Positions 4,447 to 49,580 are shown, counted from the first letter of the stretch. The stretch: DNA of 64,000 nt from Chloroflexota bacterium (GCA_003228115.1 QEVV01000006.1:25094-89093); one strand, 5' to 3'. Notes: generated from the sequence alone by a model not told the origin. Translations and numbers: made by a program.

Positions 4447-4492
4447 CTGTTATTTGTGATTTGGTTAGCATAAGAGACTTGGGAGGTTTCCC

Positions 4493-18413: not shown

Positions 18414-18519
18414 GGCAATCTCCTCTGAGCGAAATCGTTAGGCCTGAAGTCTTCGGAAGAAACACTGGGTCGCCGGAAAGCATATTGACGTCTATGGATT
18501 GTAATTGGCATCAGTGGCC

Positions 18520-19341: not shown

Positions 19342-19376
19342 AGCTACTCCCGATCACACGTAAGTTTCATCAAATG

Positions 19377-20138
19377 TTAGGCATTATCGATGAGTCTGCC
19401 CCAGCCGAGGCTACGAGGCTTGGCCTTCATTGCCCGAAGCGTGGCCCAGAACATGGCAAGGTCTCCTCCCACCACTGGCAACCCCGTGTCCTCCTCAAGC
19501 TCTTTTGCCAGACCAATGAGACGCAAGCCACCACCGAGAACCACTATAGCTTCGGTGGAATCCGGGGCCCGCCTCGCTGTCTCCCGCACGGCTGCACAGG
19601 TCGGGGCAGGGTCATGGTCCCAGGCAAGCCGGTCCTGTTCCTCGATTGAGCCCACGATTCCTTGTTGAATCCAGCCTTCTTGATAAACAACTTCGAACCC
19701 GTTCGACTCGAGTCCAGAGCGGGCCATTTTCGCCCAATCGGCTGCCGTGTAGTAACCACCGGCAACCGCCACACGGCGCGCGCCAAATTCTGCAAGGGCC
19801 TCCAACATGGCAACACCCATCAGCACCACGGGCACGCCCGCTGCGCTGGCAACGCACGCCTGAATGGCGTGTGCATCCGGACCGTGGGTAAGAGAGAATG
19901 GAACGCCAAACTGAGCCACGATATCGGCTCCGGCGTCAGCAAGGTCGCGGGCCGCATCGTTCATCCCAGGCACCGCAGCCTTGATGACATCAAGCGAGAA
20001 GCCAGCCATCGTCTTGCCAAGAAGCGTTGCGGGTATGAAGGCGCCTGCTACTTCCGTGCCTTCGGGCGCTAAGCGGAGGAAGTCAGTGGGGGCGCTGTTG
20101 AACCAGCGCTTGGGGCCGAGAAACCCTATCTTGGCCAT
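19377..20138 (-). CDS. Asp/Glu/hydantoin racemase superfamily protein, second paralog
   Basis: RRVAVAGGYY...GFEVV and EAIVVLGGGLRLIG...PVVGGDLAMFW. The internal ATG 20138 (MAKIGFLG) removes the overlap with the upstream gene. Confidence 0.65.
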   Translation of the reverse strand: MAKIGFLGPKRWFNSAPTDFLRLAPEGTEVAGAFIPATLLGKTMAGFSLDVIKAAVPGMNDAARDLADAGADIVAQFGVPFSLTHGPDAHAIQACVASAAGVPVVLMGVAMLEALAEFGARRVAVAGGYYTAADWAKMARSGLESNGFEVVYQEGWIQQGIVGSIEEQDRLAWDHDPAPTCAAVRETARRAPDSTEAIVVLGGGLRLIGLAKELEEDTGLPVVGGDLAMFWATLRAMKAKPRSLGWGRLIDNA

Positions 20139-20163
20139 TGCATCGAGTCCGGTGGGCCGGACT

Positions 20164-20583
20164 CTACCTCTCCATAAGTAGCTGGCCGCCGTAGGTCTCA
20201 ACCTTGTCCACCTCGACGATGACAGCAACGCCCTTCTTCTCTGGATCCCTACCTTGCTCGAATTCGACGACCCGATCCCACACCTGCTCGCGAAGGTCTC
20301 CGCTTTCGATGACCGTTGCCCGACCGTAAAACTTCCATCCGATTCTGGCGTCCCTGTTCATGAACATCACGGCTATCTTCGGATTCTTGCTGACGTTGGC
20401 AAGGCCGTCTCGTTTGGATCTCTCCCAGTAGGCTAGGCGATCGGCGTCGAAGACCATGGTGCTGCCCCGGTAGCCGATGCTAGGCCACCCGTCCGGATCA
20501 GAGGCAGTCATGATGCAGGGGAAGCCGCTGGCCAGTGCAGCGTTCACGTTCTCAGCCATCTCTTCGGTTAGCTCAATTGCCAT
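20164..20583 (-). CDS. Pyridoxamine 5'-phosphate oxidase-like split-barrel flavoprotein
   Basis: 139 aa with a PNPOx/FMN-binding split-barrel sequence pattern (GWPSIGYRGS...IAVMFMNRD...). GGGAG RBS. Confidence 0.7.
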   Translation of the reverse strand: MAIELTEEMAENVNAALASGFPCIMTASDPDGWPSIGYRGSTMVFDADRLAYWERSKRDGLANVSKNPKIAVMFMNRDARIGWKFYGRATVIESGDLREQVWDRVVEFEQGRDPEKKGVAVIVEVDKVETYGGQLLMER

Positions 20584-20605: not shown

Positions 20606-21529
20606 CTAGCTTGGAATTGCTTCTTTTTGGGTTATCACGGACACCCTTCCCGCGGGCGTGCTCGGATCGGGTTGATAAAGGTGCTCACGCCCTGGAGCCA
20701 GCTGCTCCATATACAAGACTTCTTCAAAGCCCTGGAATCTGATGGCTACTGCGTAGTAATAGTCTAGGGGCAGGTGGAGCTTAGCCACGCCCTTAGCGTT
20801 GGTGACGAAGCGGCCATGACCCGCAACTACAACTACCGCGCCAGGAACTGGAACGCCCTCTTGGTCAAGGATTTGCAACCTTGCGGCCCTCCTTGGAAAC
20901 AGCATACCGCTGGCCCACCGTCTGAGCTGCACAAAAGGCCCAGGCGTTGGCCCTGGTCCAATATTGTCGACTACGTCTTTCTCATACCCTATGTGCTTCG
21001 GTGTCCGCCAGTCAGGTCCGTACTTGAGCTGCAGATACTCTTCCGGCGGATTGGGAACCCTGAACTTCGTGCCTAGGAAGTCTATCTCCTTGAGCTGGTC
21101 GAAGAGCCGGACCGGAAGCACAACGCCCGGATAAATATGAACCTGTCCCTTTATGGGACGGAAGAAGGTCAGGGACATCATGTGCCTGTTCTTCAACATA
21201 CCCAGGTAGACGTGCGTATCGAATTCGTCCCTCTTTACGTAATAGTCCGCTTCCCGGAAAGCCGCGATGATGGGCTCAATCATTGCCTCTGAGAAGCCAT
21301 GCAGACCGAAGGTCGTCCCAAGGTCAATGTCATCATCCCAGGGAATGATCCCGCCTTCTCTTATGGCGCCGAGGCATATCCCATCGCGCAGATAGAAAGT
21401 TACCCCAAGCTCATCAAGGATGCCCTTTGCCTCTAGTAGAATCGCACCGGCAATAGCGGGATCCATAGCAGGGAGTGTTTTGATCAGCTCTTCAAGGATT
21501 GCTTCGTTTTCGACGTCGCTTAACGCCAT
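20606..21529 (-). CDS. LicD-family (phosphocholine/phospho-alcohol) transferase with a C-terminal extension
   Basis: DGICLGAIREGGIIPWDDDIDLG is the LicD signature. About 100 extra C-terminal residues resemble a carboxypeptidase-regulatory-like beta-sandwich. ATG 21529 is preferred because track start 21574 overlaps the upstream gene. Confidence 0.75.
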   Translation of the reverse strand: MALSDVENEAILEELIKTLPAMDPAIAGAILLEAKGILDELGVTFYLRDGICLGAIREGGIIPWDDDIDLGTTFGLHGFSEAMIEPIIAAFREADYYVKRDEFDTHVYLGMLKNRHMMSLTFFRPIKGQVHIYPGVVLPVRLFDQLKEIDFLGTKFRVPNPPEEYLQLKYGPDWRTPKHIGYEKDVVDNIGPGPTPGPFVQLRRWASGMLFPRRAARLQILDQEGVPVPGAVVVVAGHGRFVTNAKGVAKLHLPLDYYYAVAIRFQGFEEVLYMEQLAPGREHLYQPDPSTPAGRVSVITQKEAIPS

Positions 21530-21539
21530 CGGTACTGCC

Positions 21540-22283
21540 TTATAACTGAACGGTGGTGAATAAATCCTCTGCATTCGCTAGGTCTTCCTTCGTGTCGACC
21601 TCTATCCAGCGGCGATTCCCCGTCTGGTGCACACCCAGTTGAATCTTGCCCTCGCTGATGAGGCCTGCGAGAACCGCTTCATAAAACTGTTCGGTGAGCC
21701 CCTCGGTCACAAACCAGTCAAGCTTCGGAAGAAAGTGCTCCCGCATGGTGCCTTGCGAGATCTTGTAGATGTTCACGGTCTTCAGGGCATCGTTGTAGCG
21801 AAAACCCGCTGACTGATTGGCCCCCAGCACCAGGGAAGTTGCTACACCGTGCTCGGAAAGTATTACCGTTCCATTCATGAACGGCTGGAACGCCTCAACC
21901 ACGGCGGCATCGGCGTGGGGCTGACCCATAAGGTCAGTGATAAGCTCTGGTTCAAAGAGAAGGTCCCCGTCGAGCAACAGAATGTCGTCTGCCAATAGGT
22001 GCCGGGCCAGCCACAACGAGTAGATGTTATTGGTTTTCAGGTGCTCTTCGTTGGTAACGTAGGTAAGCCGCATGTCTCCGAACATGGCGCCGAACCGTTC
22101 CCGGACCAACTCGCAGAGATAGCCGACGACAATGACACAGTGATCAACGCCAACTTGCTGTAGAGATGCCAGCTCGTGTTCCAGAATCGGCTTCCCAAGC
22201 ACTTCTACCAAGCACTTGGGCACCCGGTTAGTTAGTGGCCGCAGCCTGGTTCCGCCACCTGCCGCTAGGATGACTGCCTTCAT
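21540..22283 (-). CDS. LicC-like nucleotidyltransferase (cytidylyltransferase family)
   Basis: MKAVILAAGGGTRLRP, VVGYL and NNIYSLWL match the LicC-type pattern. Its ATG overlaps the upstream stop (ATGA). Confidence 0.8.
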   Translation of the reverse strand: MKAVILAAGGGTRLRPLTNRVPKCLVEVLGKPILEHELASLQQVGVDHCVIVVGYLCELVRERFGAMFGDMRLTYVTNEEHLKTNNIYSLWLARHLLADDILLLDGDLLFEPELITDLMGQPHADAAVVEAFQPFMNGTVILSEHGVATSLVLGANQSAGFRYNDALKTVNIYKISQGTMREHFLPKLDWFVTEGLTEQFYEAVLAGLISEGKIQLGVHQTGNRRWIEVDTKEDLANAEDLFTTVQL

Positions 22284-23395
22284 TTCTCCGCTCTCCTGCC
22301 CAGACGAGCCTCTTCCCCAGCCATGCCCGAGCTTAGCGATAGGAGAGCATCGATTAGCTCTGCGTTCTCTTCCTTGGTGCGGGAAGCCATCCTGACATAC
22401 TGACCATCAAGGCCACTCTTGCCGCCGCAGTCGTTAATCAATATGTTGCATTCATCGAATAGGCGTGCAGTCAAATCTGAGCCCGTTGAGCCCCCGACGA
22501 CTCGGCTAAGGACGTAATTGCCCTCGCTTGCGTAGGGGTGAAGGTAGGGAACGGTTTGTAACCCGGCGAACAAGGCGTCGGTCGCCTGTCTCACCAGTTC
22601 GCAGGACTCGACGAACTCTGATCGATACGCTTCTAGCTCCTCCAAGAACGCCTGAGCCAGAGAGTTGATGCTCCAAATGGGAATGGCGCTACGGAGTTCG
22701 GCCACGACTTCTTCTTTGCCAGAAACGGCATATCCCAATCGCAGTCCCGGAATGCCATAGGCCTTGGAGAGGCTCTTCAGGATAACGAGGTTAGGAAACT
22801 CGAAGATCGCATCCATCACAGACGGCGAAAGACCCTGGCTGGAGAAGTCGAGAAAGGACTCGTCCACCAAAACGAGATCGAGATGGCGGAGGGACTCAAG
22901 GAGATGCAGGACCTCTTGCCGGGAGACGAGCTTGCCGGAGGGGTTATTGGGGTTAATCACCAACGCAGCATTGGCATGAGTGTCTTGTACATGCCTAACG
23001 AACGCCGGCACGTCCAACTCGAAGTCTCCGTCGAGCTGGTACGGACTTACCCGCTTGCCTTCGATCACTGCTCTGTTCACGAACTCATCGAAGGTGGGCA
23101 CTGCCACTGCCAGGTGCTCTACGAAACGACTGGCGATAGCCGTAATTAGTTCGCTCGCTCCGTTGGCCACCACGACTTGCTCATGTGTCAAACCCAGGGG
23201 TTCGGCGGCCAAGGAGGAAATGTGCCCGTTGGTAGAAGGGTAGGAGGAGACAAGCTCCTTTAGCCGCAGTCCGAGGGAATCGAACATTCCCTGCGGGGGA
23301 AAGTAGCGGTTGGTCATGTAGCAGAAGTCTTTGACCTCGTAGTTCCAGAAACCTCCGTATCGGGAGGCTACGTCTTTCACATTCAGTCGACTCAT
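22280..23395 (-). CDS. Class I/II PLP-dependent aminotransferase/decarboxylase (HisC/CobD-like)
   Basis: NPNNPSGK and SLSKAYGIPGLRLGY (PLP Lys) motifs. ATG 23395 follows GGAG. The track start 23632 overlaps the HyuB gene and is unlikely. Confidence 0.8.
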   Translation of the reverse strand: MSRLNVKDVASRYGGFWNYEVKDFCYMTNRYFPPQGMFDSLGLRLKELVSSYPSTNGHISSLAAEPLGLTHEQVVVANGASELITAIASRFVEHLAVAVPTFDEFVNRAVIEGKRVSPYQLDGDFELDVPAFVRHVQDTHANAALVINPNNPSGKLVSRQEVLHLLESLRHLDLVLVDESFLDFSSQGLSPSVMDAIFEFPNLVILKSLSKAYGIPGLRLGYAVSGKEEVVAELRSAIPIWSINSLAQAFLEELEAYRSEFVESCELVRQATDALFAGLQTVPYLHPYASEGNYVLSRVVGGSTGSDLTARLFDECNILINDCGGKSGLDGQYVRMASRTKEENAELIDALLSLSSGMAGEEARLGRRAEK

Positions 23396-23532
23396 AGGTT
23401 TGCACTCCGAATCACGCCCCGTTTGGGGGGCACAGGAGCACTCTATCACGTTCGCGATGTGACCATTCCCAGGTTCCAGGCGTGGTCGTGAGGCGAATTG
23501 ATGAATTGGAACACGTGGCTGAATTACCCCGG

Positions 23533-25773
23533 CTATTGCGGAGTTAGCCAAAAGTCCTGATATGGCTCGTCTGACTCCGCAATGGCAGGGCAGACCACGT
23601 CGCTTTGCAGTAAGACCCCGCACCCAGGGCAATAGAACCTGTGGAACTCGCCAATGTAAGGCTCACCCGAAGGCATCCTTTGCCCCGCCAGGTCCTCAAG
23701 GCTTTCAACCACCCTGGAGCTGTAGGACTTATAGTTCTCGTCAGCTCCGCAGAATAGGTGTCCACAGTCCGAACAGCGAATGGCAAGGTCATTGCCGGAG
23801 GCCGCTACTTCCAAGGTCTCGTGGAACTGGAGGAAGGGCTCCCAAATAGCGGACTTTCGTTCCAGCGATAGAGACGATGTTTGACCCGAATGAGAAGCTG
23901 CGGCCGACCGCTCCTTGCGTATACGCGCCCGAAGGGCCTCCGTCGCCTTTTCTTCCAGTGCAAATGATTCAGAGCCAACAATAACGCCAAACAACTTCTC
24001 AGCCATCCGTACCGAAACGATTCCATCGCGGACATCTTTGACCACACGCCAAGACTCCCTTTGGACGGGGTCCCCATAGCCTGCGCCACCGGCAGCAAAG
24101 TCAGTGACGATGGAGTACTCCGGTAGCGGAGATCGTCCGAGCATTTCGGGCGAGTGTTTAACCGTGCCCCATCCCTCCTTCTCCAACTGTTCGGGCCTGA
24201 TGGGGTAGGGCTCCTTCTTTAAGCGTTCGATTATGGAAGAGCCCTCCGTGTGGAACACACCTCGAGTGCCGCCAACACCCGATGGTAGACCGCCGAAAAG
24301 CCCGGCCCCTTCAGGAATGCCGCCGTAGGGCATGTAGTTCACCGTCGTGTCCTGAGAGCCGTAGATCATATACATGCGGTAGCTTCCGGCCCCACCGATG
24401 AACTTTCCCGCTCCGCCGCCGTCCCGGTGGAAGTTCCGAGTGAAGTACAAGAACGGGTACTGCATTTCAATGCGCTCGACGTCGCTGATCCCGCCGGAAG
24501 GAATGTTCATGTTCCCCCCGCAAGGAACGCCGTCACGGTCCGGGGTTGCCCCCAGGCCGGAGCCGTGACCGTCGTAGAGCCCCTGAGCCGTCACCATCCC
24601 TGCACGATTGTGGCCGCCGTAGAAGGACAGGGGGCCGCCGCTGTACCAAATGCCCTGCCAGGGAGCGTTGATGTCGTCGGATTGACCTCCGGCGTAGAGC
24701 ATCTTAGCTATGCACTCGCTAGCCGCCATTTTTGCGGTGACACCTACGCCCGGAGCACCGCCGCAAGCAGCAGGGAATGTGCAGTTCAGGATGCTCCCTT
24801 CCGGCGCCGATGATTTCACAGGGGCAAACTTCCCATCGCTCCAAGGGACGTCCCAGAACAAAAAGTCCGTCAGAACCACCGCCAATTGGGCCATCGTCCC
24901 TGCCCACGATGAGTTGGTGGTGTCAGTCATTTGGCCACTGGAGCCCGTGAAGTCGAACGACAACTCGTCATCCTGCTTGGTCATGGTGCAGGCGACGAGA
25001 TAGGGCTGAACCCCGCCGTTGACCCGGTCCCAAGCGGTCCCGTAGGCGTGCGAGGCCCAGGTGCCATTTGGCAAGCCCCGGAGCTTGGCCCTGGCCATCC
25101 GTTCAGAGTCCTCGATGATCTTTTCACCAGCCATTTGGATGAAGTCGACCCCGAACTTGCCTACTAGCTCAAGGTAGCGCTTGGAGCAGACGTTGTTGGA
25201 CGTAATCATCGACTTCATATCCAGACCAACATAGCCCGGGTCCCGGCACTGCTCCGTGATGCAACGAAACACGTCTTCGCGAAACTCGCCCTTCTCGACC
25301 AGCTTCAGGCCCTGAATCCGTATGCCCTCGTGGAAGATCTCAGTGGCCAGTCCCCGCATGACGCCGCCGGTGTCGGCCGTATGGATGCTGGAAGCCAGCC
25401 AGCCTATAAGCTCCCCGGCGTGGAACATGGGCTTGACGATCATCATGTCGTAGGTGTGAGCGCCGGCGATGTACGGGTCGTTGAAGAACAGTTGGTCTCC
25501 CTCGAAGAAACCAGGGCTGTCCGCATACCATTCGATCAGCTTCTTGATGGCGTCTGAGGTGGCCGCGGCAAAGCGGAGGTGGCCGGAACAAGCCAGCACC
25601 ATGACGCCGTCTTTGTTATAAAACGAACTCATGCATTCGCCGCCCTGGGACACGATGGGGGACGCGGTGACCTGCTGGAGCGATGTCCGTCCCTCCTCAC
25701 CGATGGCCCATAGGCGGTGCAGAAACATCTCATATTTAACTGGGTCCAGTTGAGCAGTTACAGCGGTTACCAT
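23533..25773 (-). CDS. Hydantoinase B/oxoprolinase family protein, acetone-carboxylase-alpha-like, with a C-terminal Cys4 module
   Basis: HyuB-type N-terminus LDPVKYEMFLHRLWAIGEEG. The C-terminus carries CSDCGHLFC...CPGCG. ATG 25773 follows GGAGGG. Confidence 0.85.
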   Translation of the reverse strand: MVTAVTAQLDPVKYEMFLHRLWAIGEEGRTSLQQVTASPIVSQGGECMSSFYNKDGVMVLACSGHLRFAAATSDAIKKLIEWYADSPGFFEGDQLFFNDPYIAGAHTYDMMIVKPMFHAGELIGWLASSIHTADTGGVMRGLATEIFHEGIRIQGLKLVEKGEFREDVFRCITEQCRDPGYVGLDMKSMITSNNVCSKRYLELVGKFGVDFIQMAGEKIIEDSERMARAKLRGLPNGTWASHAYGTAWDRVNGGVQPYLVACTMTKQDDELSFDFTGSSGQMTDTTNSSWAGTMAQLAVVLTDFLFWDVPWSDGKFAPVKSSAPEGSILNCTFPAACGGAPGVGVTAKMAASECIAKMLYAGGQSDDINAPWQGIWYSGGPLSFYGGHNRAGMVTAQGLYDGHGSGLGATPDRDGVPCGGNMNIPSGGISDVERIEMQYPFLYFTRNFHRDGGGAGKFIGGAGSYRMYMIYGSQDTTVNYMPYGGIPEGAGLFGGLPSGVGGTRGVFHTEGSSIIERLKKEPYPIRPEQLEKEGWGTVKHSPEMLGRSPLPEYSIVTDFAAGGAGYGDPVQRESWRVVKDVRDGIVSVRMAEKLFGVIVGSESFALEEKATEALRARIRKERSAAASHSGQTSSLSLERKSAIWEPFLQFHETLEVAASGNDLAIRCSDCGHLFCGADENYKSYSSRVVESLEDLAGQRMPSGEPYIGEFHRFYCPGCGVLLQSDVVCPAIAESDEPYQDFWLTPQ

Positions 25774-25824
25774 ATTCCCTCCATGATGATTGTTGAGGCG
25801 CTCATATGAGCCCTCCAGCAACTT

Positions 25825-27296: not shown

Positions 27297-27350
27297 CTAG
27301 AACCCGAATCCCTTCGACTGGTTGAAGAACTTCACAGTGCCGTTCGCCAT
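27297..27350 (-). pseudogene. Cold-shock protein (CspA-family) 5' gene fragment
   Basis: ATG at 27350 gives MANGTVKFFNQSKGFGF then a stop. This is the beta1-beta2/RNP-1 part of a cold-shock domain. A second degenerate AAGGGGTTCGGGTTC copy lies 6 nt downstream. The rest of the domain is not found in any frame of 27034-27296. Confidence 0.5.
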
Positions 27351-27824
27351 GTATTGCGGGCCGGTTCCATCGCCAGGATCGATTGTTGCGCGCACCGCTG
27401 CCAGCGCAGTGGTCAACGCCCTAGGGTCGGTTGGGTCGGTCAGCGTGCCTCGTAGTGACAAGGAAACCATCTCGATTGGTATTTTGGAGAACTCTATGTC
27501 ATATGTAACATCAAAGAAAGAATCGACGTTGAAGCTAGAGGCCCTAACGCCGTCCAAACCGCTTGACCCGATGTTCGCCACTCCGTACGTGATGTCGAAG
27601 AATGAGTCCACGATAAAGCCGGACTCCGCGGGGTCGAGCTCGATAATACGTGCCATTACCTGGTCAGGCGTTGTACTGAAGACAGCTAGTTCTATCCGCA
27701 CTTCGCCTTTTACGTTAGTGGCAGCCTGAGCTTCGGGCTGATACATGGCGAATAGTGCCGCCGCCGCGACAGCGACGAGCATCGAAACCGACAGCGCCCA
27801 GGCCCTCTTGCGTATGAATTGCAT
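27297..27824 (-). CDS. Secreted hypothetical protein (signal peptide; internal VDSFFD[IV]TY duplication) whose ORF ends in a cold-shock-protein N-terminal fragment
   Basis: N-terminus MQFIRKRAWALSVSMLVAVAAAALFAMYQPEAQA is a signal peptide. The motif DSFFDITY / DSFFDVTY occurs twice. The last 17 codons read MANGTVKFFNQSKGFGF. Confidence 0.55.
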   Translation of the reverse strand: MQFIRKRAWALSVSMLVAVAAAALFAMYQPEAQAATNVKGEVRIELAVFSTTPDQVMARIIELDPAESGFIVDSFFDITYGVANIGSSGLDGVRASSFNVDSFFDVTYDIEFSKIPIEMVSLSLRGTLTDPTDPRALTTALAAVRATIDPGDGTGPQYMANGTVKFFNQSKGFGF

Positions 27825-29989: not shown

Positions 29990-30715
29990 CTAGCCGCAGA
30001 GCAGTTGGAACAGCGACGAAGAGGAGAGCGGCAGCCCAGGCCAATCGTTGGTGCCCACCATCAAACGGGGATGAAGCCCATTAATTCCCAGGTCTGGCGC
30101 ATGGTGCAACGTGATAAGCGGGAGGTCTGGGAATCGTTCTCTAAGAAAGGTTACATTCTCTAACTGAACGTCGGTAAGCACGAAATCGATACCATTCAAA
30201 ACAATGAATTCTACTGAGAGCCCATGCGCCTTTGCGGCCTCCAAGGTCAAGAGGGTGTGGTTTAAAGTCCCCAACCCGGGCCGGGCCACGAGAATTATGG
30301 ACGCATTGGCCATCTCGGCGAGGTGTCTGAAATCATGACCATCAGCGTCGATTGGGACGAGCAATCCCCCCGAGCCCTCAATGAGGGTGACGTCGTGCCT
30401 TTCGGCCAGCTTCCGACAGTTCTGAGCCAATTCTACGATGTCGATGTCGCGTCCGGCTCTGCGAGCCGCGATCGCTGGGGCCAGCGGATCGGGCAGGGAT
30501 ATCAACGTTTCAAGGGTCATATGTCGACCCGCCGTTAGCTTGGCGTATACGGTCTGGTCCGCTTGAGCCCCGTCCGCCACACCCGTTTGGATCCCTTTTA
30601 TGAGGGCGACACTGCAATGCGAGGCAAGCTCAAAGGCCATCCAGCCAGACACCACAGTTTTACCGACATCCGTGTCCGTGCCAGTTACGAGATAGGTGCG
30701 CACCGGTTCGCTCAA
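29990..30715 (-). CDS. bioD: Dethiobiotin synthetase
   Basis: YLVTGTDTDVGKT P-loop. The track start is TTG 30715, which overlaps the upstream TGA (cTTGAgc). An alternative GTG lies 12 nt inside. Confidence 0.9.
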   Translation of the reverse strand: MSEPVRTYLVTGTDTDVGKTVVSGWMAFELASHCSVALIKGIQTGVADGAQADQTVYAKLTAGRHMTLETLISLPDPLAPAIAARRAGRDIDIVELAQNCRKLAERHDVTLIEGSGGLLVPIDADGHDFRHLAEMANASIILVARPGLGTLNHTLLTLEAAKAHGLSVEFIVLNGIDFVLTDVQLENVTFLRERFPDLPLITLHHAPDLGINGLHPRLMVGTNDWPGLPLSSSSLFQLLCG

Positions 30716-31950
30716 GACGGCTTCCGGAAGACCAAGCAGGCGTTGTGACCGCCGAAGCCAAAGGAATTGGACGCTACGATGTCCATGTTAGCTTTCCGTG
30801 CGACACCAGTAACGTAGTCCAAATCGCATGCAGGGTCGGGGTTGGTTAGATTGATCGTGGGTGGAAGCTGACCGGAGCCCAGTGCTTTGATCGCCGCAAC
30901 CGCCTGTACCGCCCCTGAGGCGCCCAAAAGGTGCCCGGTCATGGACTTGATGGCGGTGACTGGAACCCGCCCTGACCATTCAGCGAATGCAGCCTTGATG
31001 GCTGCCGTTTCCGCCAAGTCGCCAACCGGTGTACTCGCCGCGTGGGCGAAAATTGCGTTCACCTCGTCAGCAGATACGCTTGCCTTCTTAAGCGCCCCCG
31101 TAATCGCCCGGGCTGCGCTGGTGCCGTCGGGAATGGGACGGGTCTCGTGATAACCGTCGCTAGTTGCGCCGTAACCAGCGACCTCAGCGTAGATCTTCGC
31201 CCCTCTCGTCTGCGCCCGTTCCCATTCTTCTAAAACGAGCACGCCGGCGCCCTCGCCCAAAACGAAACCATCGCGGCCTGCGTCAAAAGGGCGGCTGGCC
31301 TCTGAAGGCGCATCATTACGCCTGGACAGAGCCCCAAGGGCGTCATCGCCGGCGAGAGTCAAGGGAGTGATACAGGCTTCAGAGGCACCGCAAAGCATAA
31401 CCTCGGCATCTCCTCGACGGATGATTTCCGCCGCTTCACCGATGGCGTGGGCACCGGTAGCACAAGCAGAGGAGACTCCAAAGCTGGGGCCTCTTAAGCC
31501 CAGGATGATAGCGGTTTGGGCTGCGGCCATATTGCTCAACATCTTTGGAGAGAGAAGGGGAGACACTCCACCAGGGTCTGCTCCCATGACTTTCCTTGCT
31601 TCGCTTAAGGCGGTCTCTTCTCCTCCGTGGCTTGATCCTATGATCACGCCGACGTCGTAAGGGTCGATGGACTCGGCGCCACATCCCGAATCAGTCCAGG
31701 CTTCCAGTGCGGCGGACACACCGAATACAGAGAACCTGTCGAGCCTTCTGAGCTTGCGGCCCTCCAGCTCAGCAGGGACGGTAAAGTCCCGCACCTCGGC
31801 GGCAATGTGGGTGCGGAAGTTCGATGGGTCGAAGAGGCTTATATGATCGACTCCAGAGCGGCCCGCTAGGAGGCCGTTCCAGAATGATTCAACGTTGTGA
31901 CCCAGTGGCGTGACCACGCCAAGGCCGGTAACAGCGATCCGTCTGCTCAT
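30712..31950 (-). CDS. Beta-ketoacyl-ACP synthase II-type condensing enzyme embedded in the biotin operon
   Basis: SSACATGAHAIG (active-site Cys), AHAASTPVGD (His) and TGHLLGASG (His). C-terminus SNSFGFGGHNACLVF. Confidence 0.9.
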   Translation of the reverse strand: MSRRIAVTGLGVVTPLGHNVESFWNGLLAGRSGVDHISLFDPSNFRTHIAAEVRDFTVPAELEGRKLRRLDRFSVFGVSAALEAWTDSGCGAESIDPYDVGVIIGSSHGGEETALSEARKVMGADPGGVSPLLSPKMLSNMAAAQTAIILGLRGPSFGVSSACATGAHAIGEAAEIIRRGDAEVMLCGASEACITPLTLAGDDALGALSRRNDAPSEASRPFDAGRDGFVLGEGAGVLVLEEWERAQTRGAKIYAEVAGYGATSDGYHETRPIPDGTSAARAITGALKKASVSADEVNAIFAHAASTPVGDLAETAAIKAAFAEWSGRVPVTAIKSMTGHLLGASGAVQAVAAIKALGSGQLPPTINLTNPDPACDLDYVTGVARKANMDIVASNSFGFGGHNACLVFRKPS

Positions 31951-32006
31951 GATGAATCCGTGTCCTGCCGATATTCCCTACGGAAGGATACCATCATGAC
32001 TGAGGA

Positions 32007-33194
32007 TCAGAGTATGCCCAATTCCTTTCCGGCCTCTTCGAAGACGGTAAGGGCCCAATGCAGGTCGGCGGCCTCATGGGTGGCCATGACGCTCAAACGG
32101 ACACGGGAAGCGCCCGGTGGAACGGTTGGGGGCCGGACGGCGACGGTGAAAAGTCCCTTCTCCCTCAACTTGAGCGCGAACTCCAGTGTCTTTCCCGGAC
32201 TGCCCACGACTATGGGGATGATCTGAGTGGAGGACGCTAGGATGTTGAATCCCTGCGCCCTGAGGCCATCACGCATGAGCGTCGAGTTCTCGGCCAGCCT
32301 GGTCACCAACTCAGGTTCTTGTTGTAGCACTCCGAGCGCCGCCTCTGAGGCAGCCACGACCGGGGCCGGAAGTGCCGTGGTGTAAATGAAGCTGCGTGAA
32401 GAGTTGACGAGGTAGCTTCGTATGGACTCAGTCGACGCCGCGATGCCGCCCAGGCTCCCCAGCGCTTTGCTCAATGTACTCATGGACACCGTAACTCTGC
32501 TAGCGAGGCCTTCCAGCGCCAACGCCCCCTTTCCTTCAGGCCCTACGCACCCCGTAGCATGGGCCTCATCCACCAAGAGCATCGCGTTGTGACGTTCGCA
32601 TATCTCAACGATGTCTGCTAAGGGAGCAACATCTCCATCCATGCTGAACACGGTCTCAGTGACGACCAACCGCTTCCCCTTCGCGGTGCTCTTGTCGACT
32701 TGGCTGAGCACACCATCAAGGGCATTGGCATCAAGGTGAGCGTAGGTCCGGTAATCAGCGCCGCTTAACCGAGCGCCATCTATGATGCTGGCGTGATTGA
32801 GCGCGTCGCCCACGACGTAGTCGCCACTCCCAACCAGCGATTGAATTATTCCAAGGTTGGCCGCATAGCCCGTCGTGTATAGGAGGGACGCTCCGAATCC
32901 CTTGAACTCAGCAAACCGCGCTTCAAAGGCTTCATGGACATCGGTTGTACCGGAGATGAGCCTAGACGCTCCGGCGCCCCAACCGTGGGTTTCTGACGCC
33001 TGATGCGCTGCAACGCGTAGTTCTGGTCGGTTGGCCAAGCCTAGATAGTTGTTGGAGCTGAAATTGAGGAGCCTGACCCCATCAACAATCACCCAGGGCT
33101 CAGACCCACCGAGGACAGGCCTCGTCCCGCGGAGCAGGTTGCGCCCCCTAAGAGCATCCAGCCGACGGGCGATAAATTGAGGGTCGGAAGTCAA
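32007..33194 (-). CDS. bioF: 8-amino-7-oxononanoate synthase
   Basis: NNYLGLA, VDEAHATG and STLSKALGSLGG (PLP Lys). Located between bioA and bioD. Confidence 0.9.
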   Translation of the reverse strand: MTSDPQFIARRLDALRGRNLLRGTRPVLGGSEPWVIVDGVRLLNFSSNNYLGLANRPELRVAAHQASETHGWGAGASRLISGTTDVHEAFEARFAEFKGFGASLLYTTGYAANLGIIQSLVGSGDYVVGDALNHASIIDGARLSGADYRTYAHLDANALDGVLSQVDKSTAKGKRLVVTETVFSMDGDVAPLADIVEICERHNAMLLVDEAHATGCVGPEGKGALALEGLASRVTVSMSTLSKALGSLGGIAASTESIRSYLVNSSRSFIYTTALPAPVVAASEAALGVLQQEPELVTRLAENSTLMRDGLRAQGFNILASSTQIIPIVVGSPGKTLEFALKLREKGLFTVAVRPPTVPPGASRVRLSVMATHEAADLHWALTVFEEAGKELGIL

Positions 33195-33273
33195 AGGAGT
33201 GTCACCAAAGGTTTCTGGGAGAGGGCGGAGGCTTTAGACAGCGGTACTTCCTGTGGCGTAATCCCAAGAGCCC

Positions 33274-34638
33274 TCAGTGACCACTCTTTGGGCCACCAAG
33301 CTCCTTGGCCACTTTGTCGAGGCCATAGCCGATGGAATCAACGATTTGTATGAGCTGGTCCTCTTCGATCGAGAGAGGAGGCATGACAACGAGGACATCG
33401 CCCAGAGGGCGGAGCAGCACGCCACGGTCGCGAGCAGCAAGGGAAACCCGAGCGCCTATCCCTTCGCTGGAGTCGAACGGAGTCTTGTTGGAAGCATCCC
33501 GGACGAGTTCGATGCCAGCCATCAGCCCCTGCTGCCTAATATCCCCTACGAGTGGGTGACCGCCAAAGTTTTCCTGGAGGAGTGTGCGGAGGAACGAGGA
33601 CCTCTCCAGAACTCGCTCTAGGACCGGAGATTCCTCGAAGACGTCAAGATTGGCGATAGCGGCAGCGGCACAAATGGGATTACCGGCGAAGGTATGCCCG
33701 TGGTACAGCGTACTGGCGCTGCCGTAGGTCTGATCGTAGAACGCCTGATATATCTCGTCCTTGGCGATGGTTGCAGACATCGGAAGGTAGCCACCGGTCA
33801 TGCCCTTGCCAATCGTCATGATGTCAGGTGTAACCCATTCAAGGTCGCAGGCGAACATGGCTCCAGTCTTGCCGAAGCCGGTGGCGATTTCGTCAGCTAT
33901 TAGCAGCACACCATGACGGGCGCAACTCTGTGCGACACGAGCCAAGTGCCCTTCTGGAGCGACGATCATGCCCGCTGCCGCTTGGACTCTGGGCTCGACG
34001 ATGACGGCCGCAATTTCATGGCCTCGAGTTTTGAGCAGTTCTTCAATTGGGTCAAGACAGGCAAGTGTGCATTCGGAAGCGCAGAGGTCACATCGATAGG
34101 CGTAGGGATTGGGAATTCGAAGGGGCTCGAACAGCAGGGGCCCGTAGGAATCTCGAAACCGGCCCACACCCCCAACACTGACCGCTCCCGCCGTATCTCC
34201 GTGGTAGGCCATATCAAGCGACACAATCAGTTGTTTTTCGGGCTGGCCTTTGTTGGCCCAATACTGGATCGCCATTTTCAGAGCGACCTCAACAGCGCTT
34301 GCGCCATCGCCGCTGAAGAAGAAACGGGACAGCTCAGGGGGCAAGTGCTTGGAAAGGCGGTTCGCCAATTCCTCAGCAACGGAATGAGTAGCGCCGAGGA
34401 GGGTGCTGTGTTGCAGCGTAGCGGCCTGACGTTGGATGGCTTCGACGATGTGCGGGTGGCTGTGACCGTGGACTATCGCCCACATGGAGGAAACGGCGTC
34501 GACGTAGCGTTTGCCGTCCGTTCCTATCAGATGGTTACCCTCACCACTAGCAACGACCACTTGCGGGTCGGCATCGAAGCGGGCCATCTGGGTGAACGGG
34601 TGCCATATCTTCTGTTCGCTGCTGGACGGCTCGCCCAC
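33274..34638 (-). CDS. bioA: Adenosylmethionine-8-amino-7-oxononanoate aminotransferase
   Basis: Class III aminotransferase pattern (LIADEIATGFGKTG, TIGKGMTGGYLP) in a bio operon context. Confidence 0.9.
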   Translation of the reverse strand: MGEPSSSEQKIWHPFTQMARFDADPQVVVASGEGNHLIGTDGKRYVDAVSSMWAIVHGHSHPHIVEAIQRQAATLQHSTLLGATHSVAEELANRLSKHLPPELSRFFFSGDGASAVEVALKMAIQYWANKGQPEKQLIVSLDMAYHGDTAGAVSVGGVGRFRDSYGPLLFEPLRIPNPYAYRCDLCASECTLACLDPIEELLKTRGHEIAAVIVEPRVQAAAGMIVAPEGHLARVAQSCARHGVLLIADEIATGFGKTGAMFACDLEWVTPDIMTIGKGMTGGYLPMSATIAKDEIYQAFYDQTYGSASTLYHGHTFAGNPICAAAAIANLDVFEESPVLERVLERSSFLRTLLQENFGGHPLVGDIRQQGLMAGIELVRDASNKTPFDSSEGIGARVSLAARDRGVLLRPLGDVLVVMPPLSIEEDQLIQIVDSIGYGLDKVAKELGGPKSGH

Positions 34639-34671
34639 ATCGCCACCTTGAGCCAGGTTCGGACCTGAGTA

Positions 34672-35691
34672 TTAATCGATCTCGATCTCGAACCCAAGGT
34701 CTTTGATCATGGCCCAGGCTTCGTCGGTATTCTGGCCGGGCGTCGTTAGATAGCCATCCACAAAGAGGGAGTTGGCAGCATAGAGAGAGAGGGGCTGCAA
34801 CGACCTCAGGTTCACTTCCCGCCCACCGGCTACACGAATCTCCTGGCGGGGATTGAGCAGACGGGCAAGACAGAGAATCCGCAGGCAGTCCTGCGGCGAG
34901 AGCTCGTCCTTCCCTTCCAGCGGGGTTCCGTCGATTGCGTGAAGAAAGTTCACCGGTATGGATTGGGGCTCCAGCTTGCGGAGCTCGACCAGGACATCGA
35001 TTACGTCGTCCTGCGCTTCTCCCATCCCAAATATAGCGCCGCTACACAGCTCCAACCCGGCAGACCGGGCTGCCTGTAGTGTCTCCATGCGGTCTGCGTA
35101 GGTGTGGCTGCTGACGATTGATGGGGAAAAGTTCTCGCTGGTATTGAGGTTGTGGTTGAGTTGGTCTACGCCTGCTTCCTTGAACGCCCGCGCCTTTTCT
35201 TCGTCAATCAGCCCCACACACGCGCAGACTTTGATCCCTACCTCTTGGATAATCTCAGTAACGGCGTCGCATAGGTAGTTGACGTCGCGCCATGAAGCAG
35301 CTCGACCACTAGTGACAATACAGAAGCGCTTGGCCTGAGCGTCCTTGGCGGCCTGGGCACCCTCCAGCAGCTTCTGCTTGGCAACCAGGGGGTACTTTTC
35401 AATCATTGCTGTGGATACCGCAGACTGGGAGCAATAGCCACAGTCTTCGGGGCAAATGCCGCTCTTGGCGTTCATGAGAACGTGAATGTGAACCTTGTTA
35501 CCGCAGAACTCTCGCCGTACCGTGTACGTCGCAGCCAAGAGGTCCAGCATGGCCTCGTCGGGAGAGTTCAGGACCTCAAGGCACTGGGCCCTGCTAAGCT
35601 CCTCGCCCCGTATAGACATGCCTGCATATTCAGCGAACTTCGAGGCGTAGCTCTCACCGCGGGCAAGTTCCGTATCTATTATTTGCGTCAA
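34672..35691 (-). CDS. bioB: Biotin synthase (radical SAM)
   Basis: CPEDCGYCSQS radical-SAM cluster motif. The TTG start follows GGAGG with an 8-nt spacer. Confidence 0.95.
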   Translation of the reverse strand: MTQIIDTELARGESYASKFAEYAGMSIRGEELSRAQCLEVLNSPDEAMLDLLAATYTVRREFCGNKVHIHVLMNAKSGICPEDCGYCSQSAVSTAMIEKYPLVAKQKLLEGAQAAKDAQAKRFCIVTSGRAASWRDVNYLCDAVTEIIQEVGIKVCACVGLIDEEKARAFKEAGVDQLNHNLNTSENFSPSIVSSHTYADRMETLQAARSAGLELCSGAIFGMGEAQDDVIDVLVELRKLEPQSIPVNFLHAIDGTPLEGKDELSPQDCLRILCLARLLNPRQEIRVAGGREVNLRSLQPLSLYAANSLFVDGYLTTPGQNTDEAWAMIKDLGFEIEID

Positions 35692-36005
35692 GCGAGAAAC
35701 CTCCTACAAACGGTAAATGAACCAGCATCTCATGGGTTGCTGTTCTCAGGAAACTGAGGCCAGACAATTACTGGACGCTTTGCCCGTAATGCAAAGCCAA
35801 GCACAATCTGGGAAGTATTCTCAGGGCGGGGGTATCCCTTGTCAATCCTAGATACGCATAGCGGGAACTCAGCAGGAGAGCACTCAACGGGATGAACCTC
35901 ACAAAGTATGTGATATCTTACGGATAGACTGCCAGTAGTAACCCGGTGCCTATTCGACCACACCAGGCGCTGATGGATCGGTTGGCGCTTGCTGCGTGAA
36001 AACCC

Positions 36006-39791: not shown

Positions 39792-41135
39792 ATGGTAGAG
39801 CAGTCGATGGTGCAAGACGTTCGCATGACCGCGGAGGAGAATGAAGCGCTCACCCGCGTGGGGCAGGGAACGCCCATGGGGACGCTGTTGCGCCGATACT
39901 GGCATCCGGTACTGCTGTCACGAGAACTTCCAGCGCCAGACTGCCCCCCAGTGCGCGTGCGGATCCTGGGCGAGGACCTCGTAGCCTTCCGCGACACCAG
40001 CGGGCGCTTGGGATTAATGCGCCAGTGGTGTGCCCACCGTCGGACATCTCTATGGCTCGGCCGGAATGAAGAGAACGGCCTTCGCTGTGTGTTCCACGGT
40101 TGGAAATATGACGTTACGGGTCAGTGCGTGGAAATGCCCAACGTACTTCCTGAGTATGATTTCAAACATCGAGTAAAGATCCCGGCACACGCGACCTACG
40201 AGATGGGGGGCGTGATCTGGGCCTATCTTGGGCCAAAGGATCAGCAGCCACCAGTGCCAAGCTTCGAGTGGACACGCCAACCGGAGAGCCACCTTCACGT
40301 ATCGAAGGGGATTCAGGAATCGAACTGGTTGCAAGGAGTGGAAGGAGGCATCGACTCCATCCATACCTCGTTCTTGCACCGCCTTCTTAGCGGGGACCGC
40401 GCTGGTTTGGGCGGCTTACGCGCCTCCGCTACAGCGACTTCCCTGGAAGTACGCCAGGCTCCTTATGGCTTCACCTACGCCTCCAAGCGACCTCTGGGCG
40501 AAGGAAAGGGCAACTACGTTCGCACGTACCACTACGTCATGCCCCACCATCAGATCCGGGCCATCCAAGGGAACACGAACGACGGCGGCGACTCGAAGTT
40601 TAAGATCGCGGGCCATGTGTGGGTTCCAATAGACGATGAAAACACCACCGTCTGGAATTGGTACTACAGCCTGGACGTCCCCTTGGGCGAAAGCGAGCGA
40701 GACGAGTCGTTCTGGGGTAACGGGCCTACCTATTACGATGAGGAGAACGGGTTCAAGGCTTATCTAAACAAGACCAACGACTGGGGCATTGACCGCCAGG
40801 TTCAGAAGACTGAAACGTTCTCTGGGATTGAGGGAGTCAACCAACAGGACAGGGCGGTCCAGGAAATCATGGGCCCCATTGTTGACCGCAGCAGGGAGCA
40901 TTTGAGCCACACTGACATGGCCGTGCTGGCGGCACGCCGACTCCTCTTGGAGGCCGCCAAGACCGTAGCAGATGGGGGCACGCCAGCGGGCGCCGACGAT
41001 TCCTACTATGACATCCGAGCCATTGAGCGGATCCTCCCAGAGGATGCAAACTGGTCCGAGGCGCTCAAAGACGAGATGTTCCCAACAGGCGGCCCGGACC
41101 TCTCCAAGGCGCAGGAACTCGGAAAGACGGTTTAG
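39792..41135 (+). CDS. Rieske (2Fe-2S) non-heme-iron oxygenase alpha subunit
   Basis: CAHRRTSL...CVFHGW and IDSIHTSFLH motifs. GGGAGG RBS. Confidence 0.9.
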   Translation: MVEQSMVQDVRMTAEENEALTRVGQGTPMGTLLRRYWHPVLLSRELPAPDCPPVRVRILGEDLVAFRDTSGRLGLMRQWCAHRRTSLWLGRNEENGLRCVFHGWKYDVTGQCVEMPNVLPEYDFKHRVKIPAHATYEMGGVIWAYLGPKDQQPPVPSFEWTRQPESHLHVSKGIQESNWLQGVEGGIDSIHTSFLHRLLSGDRAGLGGLRASATATSLEVRQAPYGFTYASKRPLGEGKGNYVRTYHYVMPHHQIRAIQGNTNDGGDSKFKIAGHVWVPIDDENTTVWNWYYSLDVPLGESERDESFWGNGPTYYDEENGFKAYLNKTNDWGIDRQVQKTETFSGIEGVNQQDRAVQEIMGPIVDRSREHLSHTDMAVLAARRLLLEAAKTVADGGTPAGADDSYYDIRAIERILPEDANWSEALKDEMFPTGGPDLSKAQELGKTV

Positions 41136-49129: not shown

Positions 49130-49447
49130 CTACCAGCGCCGCTCGTTGCGCGGGCCGCCTCCTCCTCCGCCAGAGTCGTTGCGAGGTCCGCTGAAGCTCC
49201 GCTGTTCACGAGGCTTGGCCTCGTTCACTGTAAGCGTGCGGCCAGCAAGGTCCTGGCCGTTCAAGCCCGTAATGGCGTTCTGAGCCTCCGTCAGGTCAGG
49301 CATCTCCACAAACCCGAATCCCTTGGACCGGCCGGAGTCACGGTCAGTGACTACCTGGGCAGACTCAACAGACCCATAAGCCAGGAAGGCTCGCTCTAGG
49401 TCAGAGTCTCGGGACTCGTACGACAGGTTCCCCACATAGATACGCAT
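49130..49447 (-). CDS. RRM-type RNA-binding protein (copy 2)
   Basis: MRIYVGNLSY and KGFGFVEM motifs with a Gly-rich tail. ATG 49447 follows AAGGAG. The upstream part of the track ORF is the leader read as protein. Confidence 0.9.
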   Translation of the reverse strand: MRIYVGNLSYESRDSDLERAFLAYGSVESAQVVTDRDSGRSKGFGFVEMPDLTEAQNAITGLNGQDLAGRTLTVNEAKPREQRSFSGPRNDSGGGGGGPRNERRW

Positions 49448-49580
49448 ATGGCACTCCTTGCCAAAAGATACCGAGCCTTCCTGTGCAAGGACGCCTGTGC
49501 CGGAGAGCTTAGCGGGGCTAAAACGCAGGGCAGGAACGAACAGTACAAGAGAAGTCTTCGGTCGCGACAGTTTACCACAG
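49448..49580 (-). promoter_or_regulatory. Conserved 5' leader (~110 nt) plus extended -10 promoter (TGGTAAACT) of RRM gene 2
   Basis: 49448-49552 is near-identical to 57897-58002. The element TGTGGTAAACT at 49569-49579 matches TGTGGTATACT upstream of copy 3. Confidence 0.55.

Follow-up and report, generated by a model that had tools for sequence, protein, structure and literature searches.

In the synthesis of biotin, the part that varies among bacteria and is not yet fully mapped is the making of the pimelate moiety, and the locus described here raises the question of how this moiety is supplied. In a 64,000-nt stretch of Chloroflexota DNA (QEVV01000006.1:25094-89093; hereafter the window, with positions counted from its first letter), a single minus-strand operon at 29990-35691 contains five closely packed genes in the order bioB-bioA-bioF-KAS II-bioD, in which KAS II is a β-ketoacyl-acyl carrier protein (ACP) synthase. 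BioF is the consumer of the pimeloyl thioester; which enzyme provides this thioester, and what does a condensing enzyme do among the biotin genes? A first-pass annotation of the window had proposed that the KAS is a dedicated condensing enzyme for building the C7 diacid on ACP, and this proposal gains support from two features, namely a distinct bio-linked clade and a predicted charged or polar back gate at the C7-C8 position. We consider it likely, with a probability of about 0.68, that the KAS is a biotin-dedicated, ACP-dependent decarboxylating Claisen condensing enzyme for short ω-carboxy primers, which would give 3-oxopimeloyl-ACP without methyl esters. The grounds for this reading are the retained fold, catalytic and ACP-docking residues, the clade-wide change of the pocket, the strict linkage to bio genes, and a separate FabF in one cultured member of the clade; from these we infer the substrate of the KAS, the role of each substituted residue, and the completion of the cycle by housekeeping reductases.

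By its domains, fold and catalytic triad, the KAS (412 aa; 30712-31950, minus strand) is a member of the KAS II/FabF superfamily, the thiolase-fold elongating ketosynthases. The protein contained the domains PF00109 (192 bits) and PF02801 (113 bits), whereas no match to the ACP_syn_III domain was found, and its triad was Cys-His-His. A phmmer search against the PDB matched it to 1e5m with an E value of 1.6e-121, and it aligned with FabF structures without gaps at 45-50% identity. Furthermore, an AlphaFold model of the KAS (predicted local distance difference test score, 93) gave a Foldseek TM-score of 0.97 and a root-mean-square deviation of about 1.5 Å to solved FabF structures. Because this confident model superposed on FabF at a TM-score of 0.97, the scaffold is regarded as unchanged. 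The three motifs that the first-pass annotation had read as an intact triad context were indeed present: SSACATG with Cys163 (catalytic; codon at 31462-31464), AHAASTPVG with His303 (31042-31044), and TGHLLGASG with His340 (30931-30933). Lys335 (30946-30948) and the equivalent of Phe400 (residue 399 in the GFGG gating loop; 30754-30756) were also found, all of these codons being on the minus strand. These five residues were invariant in all 76 members of the clade described below and in canonical FabFs alike. The KAS scored 517.5 bits on the FabF equivalog model TIGR03150 (cutoff, 493.75 bits); because this cutoff is passed, such a protein is usually annotated as "fabF", and the NCBI name for two members of the clade is only "beta-ketoacyl-ACP synthase family protein".

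The designation "FabF-type" in the first-pass annotation holds for the fold and the catalytic residues only; the acyl pocket appears to have been remodelled, with His108 and Asp202 at its back gate. This was seen when the window KAS was aligned with 120 homologues and two E. coli references, FabF and FabB, which were 100% identical to PDB 6okg and 1fj4, respectively. Residue numbers are those of E. coli; up to about residue 390 they coincide with the numbering of the window KAS. His108 and Asp202 (hereafter the signature) were shared by 76 sequences, which formed a monophyletic clade with a bootstrap of 60/60; the phylogenetic placement against FabF and FabB that the first-pass annotation had called for thus gave a distinct group. 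A search of a library of representatives at 50% identity, the ranking of which was dominated by polyketide synthases with multiple ketosynthases, added one signature sequence (P0453) and one sequence of an Arg108 type (P0570).

We compared the pocket residues of the clade with those of 50 canonical FabFs. His108 was found in 76 of the 76 clade members and in none of the 50 canonical FabFs, in all of which position 108 was Ile or Val. Asp202 was likewise present in every clade member, whereas 49 of the 50 canonical sequences had Phe202. In the window, one half of the FabF back gate, Gly107-Ile108, has given way to Ser107 and His108 (codons at 31627-31632, minus strand), and the other half, Phe202, to Asp202 (codon at 31345-31347, minus strand); the window KAS also has Glu111, Lys136 and Thr198. 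The substitutions I108H, L111E, I138L, G198T, F202D, S333A and E349Q occurred throughout the clade (76/76). Others were nearly as general: G107S in 70 of the 76 members, A193C in 71, M269E in 73, N301F in 74 and G304A in 73, together with Arg or Lys at position 136 in 72 (Met in most FabFs) and Arg or His at position 271 in 75. These clade-wide substitutions were absent or almost absent among the canonical FabFs. From the FabF and FabB structures, we take residue 136 to lie on the partner-subunit helix that closes the distal pocket, beside Phe133', and Glu349 to be the partner of the catalytic Lys335. Thr307 and the Asp265-Asn404 pair, which operates the gating loops of FabF, were kept in all 76 members, and the ACP-docking positions 65, 68 and 69 were basic in 68-71 of them.

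The back gate of FabF, which consists of Ile108 and Phe202, is met by the bound chain at about C7-C8; Ile108 is a strongly conserved residue specific to FabF, and with the I108F substitution loading goes no further than about C6 (PMC9006962). Glutaryl-ACP methyl ester, which is an E. coli intermediate of biotin synthesis, extends to roughly this gate (PMC9006962). Gating loop 2 of FabF, residues 265-275, forms a cap over the Phe400 loop and touches both ACP and phosphopantetheine (PMC7138838); gating loop 2 reads HITAP in FabF and HETRP in the bio-linked clade. The window KAS lacked the hydrophobic Ile108/Phe202 gate that admits C8-C16 chains in a housekeeping FabF. The substitutions suggest that the hydrophobic chain tunnel has been turned into a short charged cavity while the ACP-dependent decarboxylating condensing machinery has been left intact. 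The gate is a His-Asp pair and further polar residues line the channel; such a cavity would be expected for a primer ending in a carboxylate, and the predicted pocket is hard to reconcile with the elongation of C4-C16 chains.

The genomic context of the KAS was the second line of evidence. The nearest relatives of the window locus were found in Dehalococcoidia (Chloroflexota), where two metagenome-assembled genomes (MAGs), one of them a complete chromosome of 3.09 Mb, shared the neighbourhood SBP-bioB-bioA-bioF-KAS-bioD-aldolase-dehydrogenase-msrB. The proteins of this neighbourhood were 57-88% identical between the window and the two MAGs (KAS, 75%), and the exact window KAS protein also occurred in the SRA run SRR11563580. 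We inspected the context of KAS homologues at 52-67% identity and obtained nine independent signature lineages (the window with L001 and L002; L003; L010 with L102; L011; L012 with L013; L014; L015; L017; and L020). Besides the B-A-F-KAS-D order of the window, with one additional gene before the KAS in L011 (bioB-A-F-x-KAS-D), the KAS followed the bio genes as bioF-A-D-B-KAS (L010, L017 and L102), preceded them directly as KAS-bioB-A-F-D (L012) or with two unrelated genes between (L014), or stood beyond bioB-A-F-D next to a biotin-protein ligase gene (L015); a short Thermomicrobia contig (L003) contained bioB-KAS. In all, five gene orders were distinguished: B-A-F-KAS-D, F-A-D-B-KAS, KAS-B-A-F-D, KAS-x-x-B-A-F-D and B-A-F-D...KAS. 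The members of the clade came from Dehalococcoidia, Thermomicrobia including Nitrolancea, Chloroflexaceae, MAGs labelled as Anaerolineae, and Gemmatimonadota. Among the larger sequences with the gene are the Dehalococcoidia chromosome OZ253584.1 and contigs of 7.05 Mb (ERZ25069191:ctg587149) and 2.65 Mb (ERZ26167216:ctg495694). Because the linkage persists through five rearrangements across at least two phyla, a shared pathway is strongly indicated.

In the flanks examined, bio genes lay beside the signature KAS in 9 of the 9 independent lineages and beside canonical FabF at none of 87 loci (Fisher p = 7.7e-13; 2.3e-10 with the canonical loci limited to those of 10 kb or longer). The 87 canonical loci included 80 metagenomic FabF loci, which were the matches listed for the generic pattern RDGFV..EG; all of these were canonical, and hence they served as the control set. 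The gene acpP was located within 210 bp upstream in 63 of the 87 canonical loci and in none of the nine signature lineages. Likewise, canonical homologues stood directly after acpP in L007, L008 and L016, one from a related marine Chloroflexota (L018) was located in a fabD|fabF-fabH-accDA-accC-accB cluster, and the canonical fabF of Thermomicrobium roseum followed fabD. The association with acpP, fabD, fabG or fabH that marks an elongating KAS was not seen at the signature loci, where no ACP or fab gene stood beside the KAS. Indeed, the KAS was the only gene that recurred with bioF, bioA, bioD and bioB; no ACP, FabG, FabZ, BioC-like protein, esterase, BioW, cytochrome P450, KAS III or coenzyme A (CoA) transferase recurred across these loci. 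A search of a plasmid collection, which yielded the T. roseum fabD-fabF reference, found no signature KAS on plasmids.

Two kinds of genes at individual loci were considered as partners of the KAS and set aside. The PIMT-like methyltransferases beside the bio genes in L011 and L015, candidates for BioC analogues, matched graspetide/PIMT families and had no homologue in the window; one of them was accompanied by an ATP-grasp enzyme and a small open reading frame (ORF). The small ORFs of L011 (100 aa) and L015 (103 aa), candidates for dedicated ACPs, matched neither the PP-binding family nor any other, and were dissimilar to each other and to E. coli AcpP. As a separate observation, these two unrelated contigs (L015:4256-7893 and L011:10244-12123) both have the bio cluster joined to a PIMT/graspetide O-methyltransferase and then to a stand-alone biotin-protein ligase. 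L015 additionally contains the 103-aa ORF and an MvdD-type ATP-grasp enzyme, and this arrangement resembles a small graspetide cluster, that is, one for a ribosomally synthesised and post-translationally modified peptide, inserted among biotin genes.

A cultured member of the clade provides a case of a separate housekeeping FabF. The nitrite oxidiser Nitrolancea hollandica Lb encodes a KAS with the full signature (WP_008477931.1; 65% identical to the window KAS), which in its assembly (GCA_000297255.1) is the last gene of a bioF-bioA-bioD-bioB-KAS operon (L102). A search with the FabF of its class-mate T. roseum retrieved a second Nitrolancea KAS, P0371, which was 74% identical to the query and was located in an ftsH-Vut_1-fabD-fabF arrangement as in T. 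roseum. P0371 has a hydrophobic pocket with Gly108 and Phe202 and is 43% identical to the bio-operon KAS of N. hollandica; its attribution to this species is that of the NCBI and UniRef name, since the exact sequence was listed for two SRA assemblies and for the MAG of a relative. N. hollandica can be grown on a purely mineral medium free of vitamins (PMC3504966), and because of this growth its biotin pathway, including pimelate supply, must be complete. For the organism of the window itself, a second fabF is an extrapolation from N. hollandica. With a profile made from 12 canonical Chloroflexota FabFs, all 120 matches listed were on short contigs, none of which corresponded in length to a contig with a signature KAS. 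Separately, we observed that the housekeeping FabF of Thermomicrobia (L101:6995-8242 in T. roseum; L103:8001-9239, Nitrolancea-type) is itself atypical, having Gly108 (a FabB-like open gate), Cys301 for an otherwise invariant Asn, and Ser349 for Glu; these features may be connected with the lipids of this class, which are of long-chain diol and methyl-branched types.

We also searched the window for genes of the known pimelate routes. Pfam scans of 48 further ORFs of at least about 145 aa, shorter ones being too small for any of the pimelate enzymes, and NCBIfam scans of the candidate methyltransferases and hydrolases detected no BioC, BioH, BioW, BioI, BioZ or BioE; the first-pass annotation had reported the absence of the first five from the window, and the scans agree and extend it to BioE. 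Two stand-alone methyltransferases scored 38-44 bits on BioC models, for which the cutoffs are 185-342 bits; on TIGR02072 (cutoff, 184.95 bits), the one at 11960-12559 scored 40.5 bits and the one at 56011-57045 scored 37.5 bits. The best candidate for BioH, an α/β-hydrolase at 18520-19341, scored 73.5 bits against a cutoff of 206.95 bits and matched PcaD best. Within the 64-kb window, neither BioC (TIGR02072) nor a pimeloyl-ACP methyl esterase, which together define the BioC-BioH route, was found; bioC and bioH were also absent from the flanks of the nine signature lineages, and the window contained no second KAS gene and no ACP gene.

These results can be joined into the following proposed mechanism. 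A glutaryl thioester on Cys163 would be condensed with malonyl-ACP to give 3-oxopimeloyl-ACP, which the ordinary FabG, FabZ and FabI of the cell would convert to pimeloyl-ACP for use by BioF, encoded just upstream. The His108-Asp202 pair would close the pocket where the ω-carboxylate of the C5 diacid is expected to sit and would bind this carboxylate. The closed polar gate would also control chain length by leaving no room for a C7 diacid in the primer position, and the methyl-ester disguise provided by BioC and BioH would be unnecessary. Because purified E. coli FabG, FabA and FabI turn the free-carboxyl product of BioZ into pimeloyl-ACP (PMC7645780), only the condensing step would need a specialist, which fits the KAS as the sole recurrent extra gene.

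Two sources of the glutaryl group appear about equally likely. In one, a "three malonates" scheme, the KAS would first make glutaryl-ACP itself from a malonyl-ACP primer and malonyl-ACP; in the other, which resembles BioZ, glutaryl-CoA from catabolism would be loaded directly. In favour of the former, KAS II enzymes are iterative and use ACP-bound primers, and a universal substrate would suit an autotroph such as Nitrolancea. In addition, no CoA-transferase or ligase recurs in the operons, the predicted polar changes are placed at two levels of the pocket, near its top in the case of Ser107 and Thr198 and at the gate in that of His108 and Asp202, and by analogy the genetics of Desulfovibrio points to methyl-ester-free elongation of malonyl-ACP (PMC10102598). 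The glutaryl-CoA option has in its favour that it makes fewer assumptions about the reductases, but it needs a supply of glutaryl-CoA and a CoA-primed KAS II. In the introduction to PMC7645780, a "three malonates" route is set aside since the hydrophobic active sites of fatty-acid synthesis cannot take a free carboxyl group. We tentatively put forward a broader version, which we regard as possible but doubtful, in which the single remodelled KAS II makes type II fatty-acid synthesis a pimeloyl-ACP factory: a malonyl primer with a free carboxylate would undergo two condensations with malonyl-ACP, the closed His108-Asp202 gate would stop the chain at C7, the housekeeping FabG, FabZ, FabI and ACP would do the rest, and Chloroflexota and Gemmatimonadota would obtain their biotin precursor mainly by this route.

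Several points weigh against a biotin-dedicated condensing enzyme of this kind. The search for bioC, bioH-type esterases, bioW, bioI, bioZ and bioE covered only the 64-kb window and flanks of 8-10 kb. The KAS clears the NCBI FabF equivalog cutoff, although by a margin of only 24 bits. KAS II normally takes ACP-bound primers, and we know of no route to glutaryl-ACP besides the proposed first round; in that round, the housekeeping FabG, FabZ and FabI must accept C5 ω-carboxy intermediates, and Desulfovibrio carries its own FabG, FabZ-like protein and ACP. As for the pocket, an Asp and two Glu residues in a carboxylate-binding site are not self-evidently favourable and may only position the His and Arg residues, and residues 136 and 349 may lie in or near the pocket, a placement that comes from general knowledge of FabF and FabB structures.

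Among the other explanations, the one that survives best, although we consider it unlikely, is that the KAS helps a methyl-ester (BioC-BioH) route encoded elsewhere by elongating malonyl- or glutaryl-ACP methyl esters that the housekeeping KAS handles poorly. The limited range of the bioC/bioH search leaves room for such a route, the housekeeping FabF of Thermomicrobia is itself atypical, and, with glutaryl-ACP methyl ester reaching about as deep as residues 108 and 202 (PMC9006962), the changed gate could equally tune the binding of an ester. However, no BioC-like methyltransferase or esterase was present at any of the nine independent bio loci, the PIMT-like enzymes of L011 and L015 belonging to graspetide/PIMT families, and the methyltransferases and hydrolases of the window scored far under the BioC and BioH cutoffs. 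Moreover, five invariant or nearly invariant charged residues (His108, Glu111, Arg/Lys136, Asp202 and Arg/His271), together with Arg108 in a sister clade, suit a charged ligand better than a neutral ester.

It is still less probable that the KAS has some other biotin-related or co-regulated role and no part in pimelate synthesis, for example in providing a short acyl-ACP for lipoate or another cofactor, or in tuning fatty-acid synthesis to biotin and acetyl-CoA carboxylase. The function of the KAS is deduced solely from context; as fatty-acid synthesis relies on acetyl-CoA carboxylase, a biotin enzyme, co-regulation is conceivable, and a closed gate would suit any short-chain product. Nevertheless, a short hydrophobic product would not need the charged pocket residues, the operons otherwise lack a candidate for the missing first stage, and the KAS gene is within the operon, between bio genes and apparently translationally coupled to one of them. 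Linkage that lasts through rearrangement in at least two phyla is typical of a pathway member and not of loose co-regulation. That the KAS is simply the housekeeping FabF of the organism, placed in the bio operon by chance, is scarcely credible: it passes the FabF cutoff with a complete catalytic apparatus and no second fabF lies in the window, but the linkage contrast (9/9 versus 0/87) speaks against chance, the otherwise conserved gate positions, at one of which even I108F blocks long chains, are both polar in 76 of 76 members, related marine Chloroflexota carry a canonical fabF in a fabD|fabF-fabH-acc cluster, and the "only fabF" objection fails in N. hollandica because a separate fabD-fabF copy is present there in a locus like that of T. 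roseum.

The pimelate-supplying condensing enzyme proposed here was compared with known systems. As of December 2025, the recognised routes are BioC-BioH, BioI-BioW, BioZ and BioE, and a Desulfovibrio cluster is known only genetically (PMC12704756, PMC10102598). The routes listed in the first-pass annotation, BioC-BioH, BioW/BioI and BioZ, are among these; that list was incomplete in lacking the fourth, BioE (PMC12704756). We found no description of the present family in recent summaries of pimelate routes or in open-access and bioRxiv full text, although a report in a subscription journal is possible.

BioZ, the KAS III/FabH-type pimelate enzyme of α-proteobacteria (PMC7645780, PMC8024396, PMC12625853), offers the best functional analogy. 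Both are condensing-enzyme paralogues in a bio operon, which in the case of BioZ replaces bioC/bioH, and BioZ takes a glutaryl primer with a free ω-carboxylate and malonyl-ACP, after which FabG, FabA/Z and FabI finish the product, as is proposed for the window KAS. In contrast, BioZ belongs to KAS III, has the triad Cys-His-Asn and starts from a CoA primer, whereas the window KAS, a KAS II with Cys-His-His and no ACP_syn_III domain, has kept the ACP-docking residues. In BioZ, two serines hold the carboxylate; the candidates in the window KAS are His, Arg/Lys and acidic partners. The two also differ in distribution, BioZ being found in Rhizobiales and the window-type KAS in Chloroflexota and Gemmatimonadota. 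Judged by its sequence, the window KAS is not a member of the BioZ family and is not homologous to it in the family sense.

Within the same enzyme class, the extended bio cluster of Desulfovibrio (Rodionov 2004; PMC10102598) comes closest. In Desulfovibrio vulgaris, this cluster (DVU2558-DVU2565) includes FabF DVU2563, ACP DVU2562, FabG DVU2561 and the FabZ-like DVU2560/DORF42491, in addition to the nitroreductase DVU1220 (PMC10102598). The first-pass annotation had treated this precedent as merely noted, which understates it: random-barcode transposon-site sequencing shows that the cluster genes are needed for growth without biotin (PMC10102598). As in the window, a FabF-annotated KAS lies within a bio cluster, and Desulfovibrio lacks bioC/bioH. 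The Desulfovibrio cluster, however, has its own ACP, reductase and dehydratases, none of which occurs in the window operon or at any signature locus, where the KAS is the sole extra gene. Furthermore, the Desulfovibrio-type cluster has been reported only from anaerobes of a few phyla (PMC10102598), whereas members of the signature clade come from Chloroflexota and Gemmatimonadota that are aerobes or heterotrophs, among them an aerobic oxidiser of nitrite; these contrasts concern gene content and distribution, and DVU2563 itself may or may not share the His108/Asp202 signature. Compared with housekeeping FabF (E. coli 2GFW/2GFY/6OKG), the window clade shares the fold, Cys163, His303, His340, Lys335, Phe400, the Asp265-Asn404 pair and the basic ACP-docking residues, and differs in the changed back gate and about ten further pocket and active-site positions, in lacking acpP and fab neighbours, and in forming a separate clade.

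In the tree, a sister clade (P0062, P0072 and P0570) has Arg108 and shares Glu111 and Lys136 with the signature clade. Arginine is a classical carboxylate ligand, and the Arg108 clade points in the same direction, towards a primer that may end in a carboxylate. It is also bio-linked: a marine ENA contig (L019; cluster at 1-5890, KAS at 2799-4037) carries bioF-bioD-bioA-KAS followed by a FabG equivalog of its own and a hydrolase of the MBL fold. The L019 KAS (P0072) has Arg108, Glu111, Lys136 and Glu271; unlike the signature clade, it keeps Phe202, Asn301, Gly304 and Glu349, and it scored 577 bits as FabF. The Arg108 clade probably solves the same problem in a different way, and the L019 cluster may represent a partial answer to pimelate supply along the lines of Desulfovibrio.

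KAS-based pimelate supply of the window type is probably widespread in Chloroflexota and Gemmatimonadota, and its enzymes probably form an undescribed family. If the reading is true, this family adds a pimelate route for two large, environmentally abundant phyla. Scoring of pathway completeness by bioC, bioH, bioW, bioI, bioZ and bioE would miss the KAS, and, if the KAS is the pimelate route of these groups, their genomes risk being scored as biotin auxotrophs without the first stage. The clade would also be a natural experiment in ketosynthase specificity, in which fewer than 20 substitutions around the Ile108/Phe202 gate appear to retarget an elongating ketosynthase to a short dicarboxylate; this is relevant to the engineering of fatty-acid and polyketide synthases for diacids and to the production of pimelate or biotin. 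The proposal is directly testable, as a cultured, vitamin-independent organism with the enzyme is available (WP_008477931.1) and both the complementation of E. coli bioC/bioH mutants and coupled assays in vitro are established.

The remaining genes of the operon, all on the minus strand, were examined with curated family models, which confirmed the gene order given in the first-pass annotation. The first gene, bioB (biotin synthase, 339 aa; 34672-35691), scored 387 bits on TIGR00433 (cutoff, 225 bits) and contained Radical_SAM and BATS domains; its start codon is TTG, as had been annotated, with AGGAGG 8 nt on the 5' side. It is followed by bioA (adenosylmethionine-8-amino-7-oxononanoate transaminase, 454 aa; 33274-34638), with 499 bits on TIGR00508 (cutoff, 405 bits), and by bioF (8-amino-7-oxononanoate synthase, 395 aa; 32007-33194), for which TIGR00858 was the top-scoring family at 426.4 bits, that is, at its cutoff of 426.45 bits. 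The last gene, bioD (dethiobiotin synthase, 241 aa; 29990-30715), scored 134 bits on TIGR00347 (cutoff, 83 bits). The gaps between bioB, bioA, bioF and the KAS gene are 33, 79 and 56 nt, respectively, and the KAS and bioD genes overlap by 4 nt; the overlap of the KAS stop codon TGA with the bioD start codon TTG that had been annotated (cTTGAgc, 30712-30715) was read in the sequence. Through this TTGA overlap, bioD is predicted to be translationally coupled to the KAS. An alternative bioD start, an in-frame GTG, lies 12 nt downstream of the TTG.

A single σ70-like promoter (TTGACA-17-GAGAAT; 10 of 12 consensus positions) was predicted upstream of bioB, at 35817-35845 on the minus strand, and this block is kept in the syntenic Dehalococcoidia loci L001 and L002. 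Between the promoter and bioB is a leader of about 125 nt (35692-35816, minus strand) with a small hairpin, GCTTTGC...GCAAAGC; the leaders of L001 and L002 have a different hairpin (CTTGG...CCAAG) at the equivalent place. No Rfam match to a riboswitch or structured leader was found 5' of bioB, and the overall fold was no better than that of shuffled sequence (z = -0.6). The leader could be an operator for a biotin repressor. The genes flanking the operon, a class II aldolase gene and purU, are on the opposite strand and unrelated.

Several other features of the window were observed. Catabolic paralogues are dense (1232-4446, 12779-13804, 17679-20228, 23533-25821, 39792-41135 and 47208-48920), the set including three Amidohydro_2 proteins, two hydantoinase-B/oxoprolinase proteins, two arylmalonate-decarboxylase-like proteins, a LigXa-type Rieske oxygenase, several short-chain dehydrogenases/reductases and major facilitator superfamily transporters. 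Such a gene content is suggestive of a SAR202-like or comparable heterotroph; the nearest relatives of the locus were those in Dehalococcoidia. At 20606-23632 (minus strand), genes for a LicD-family protein, a nucleotidyltransferase and a 450-aa aminotransferase/decarboxylase-like ORF, which overlaps the next gene, stand in a row, and this suggests a phosphocholine-type or similar surface-decoration module. A 175-aa ORF at 27297-27824 (minus strand) has a signal-peptide-like N-terminus and no family match; the start motif of a cold-shock domain, NGTVKFFNQSKGFGF, stands directly before its stop codon, and a duplicated QPKGFGF follows the stop, so that the region resembles a truncated or rearranged csp gene fused to the upstream ORF. 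Finally, a 193-aa bacterial protein with the RNA recognition motif RRM_1 is encoded at 49130-49711 (minus strand) and a protein with a CSLREA N-terminal domain at 60578-61573 (plus strand), both unrelated to the biotin operon.

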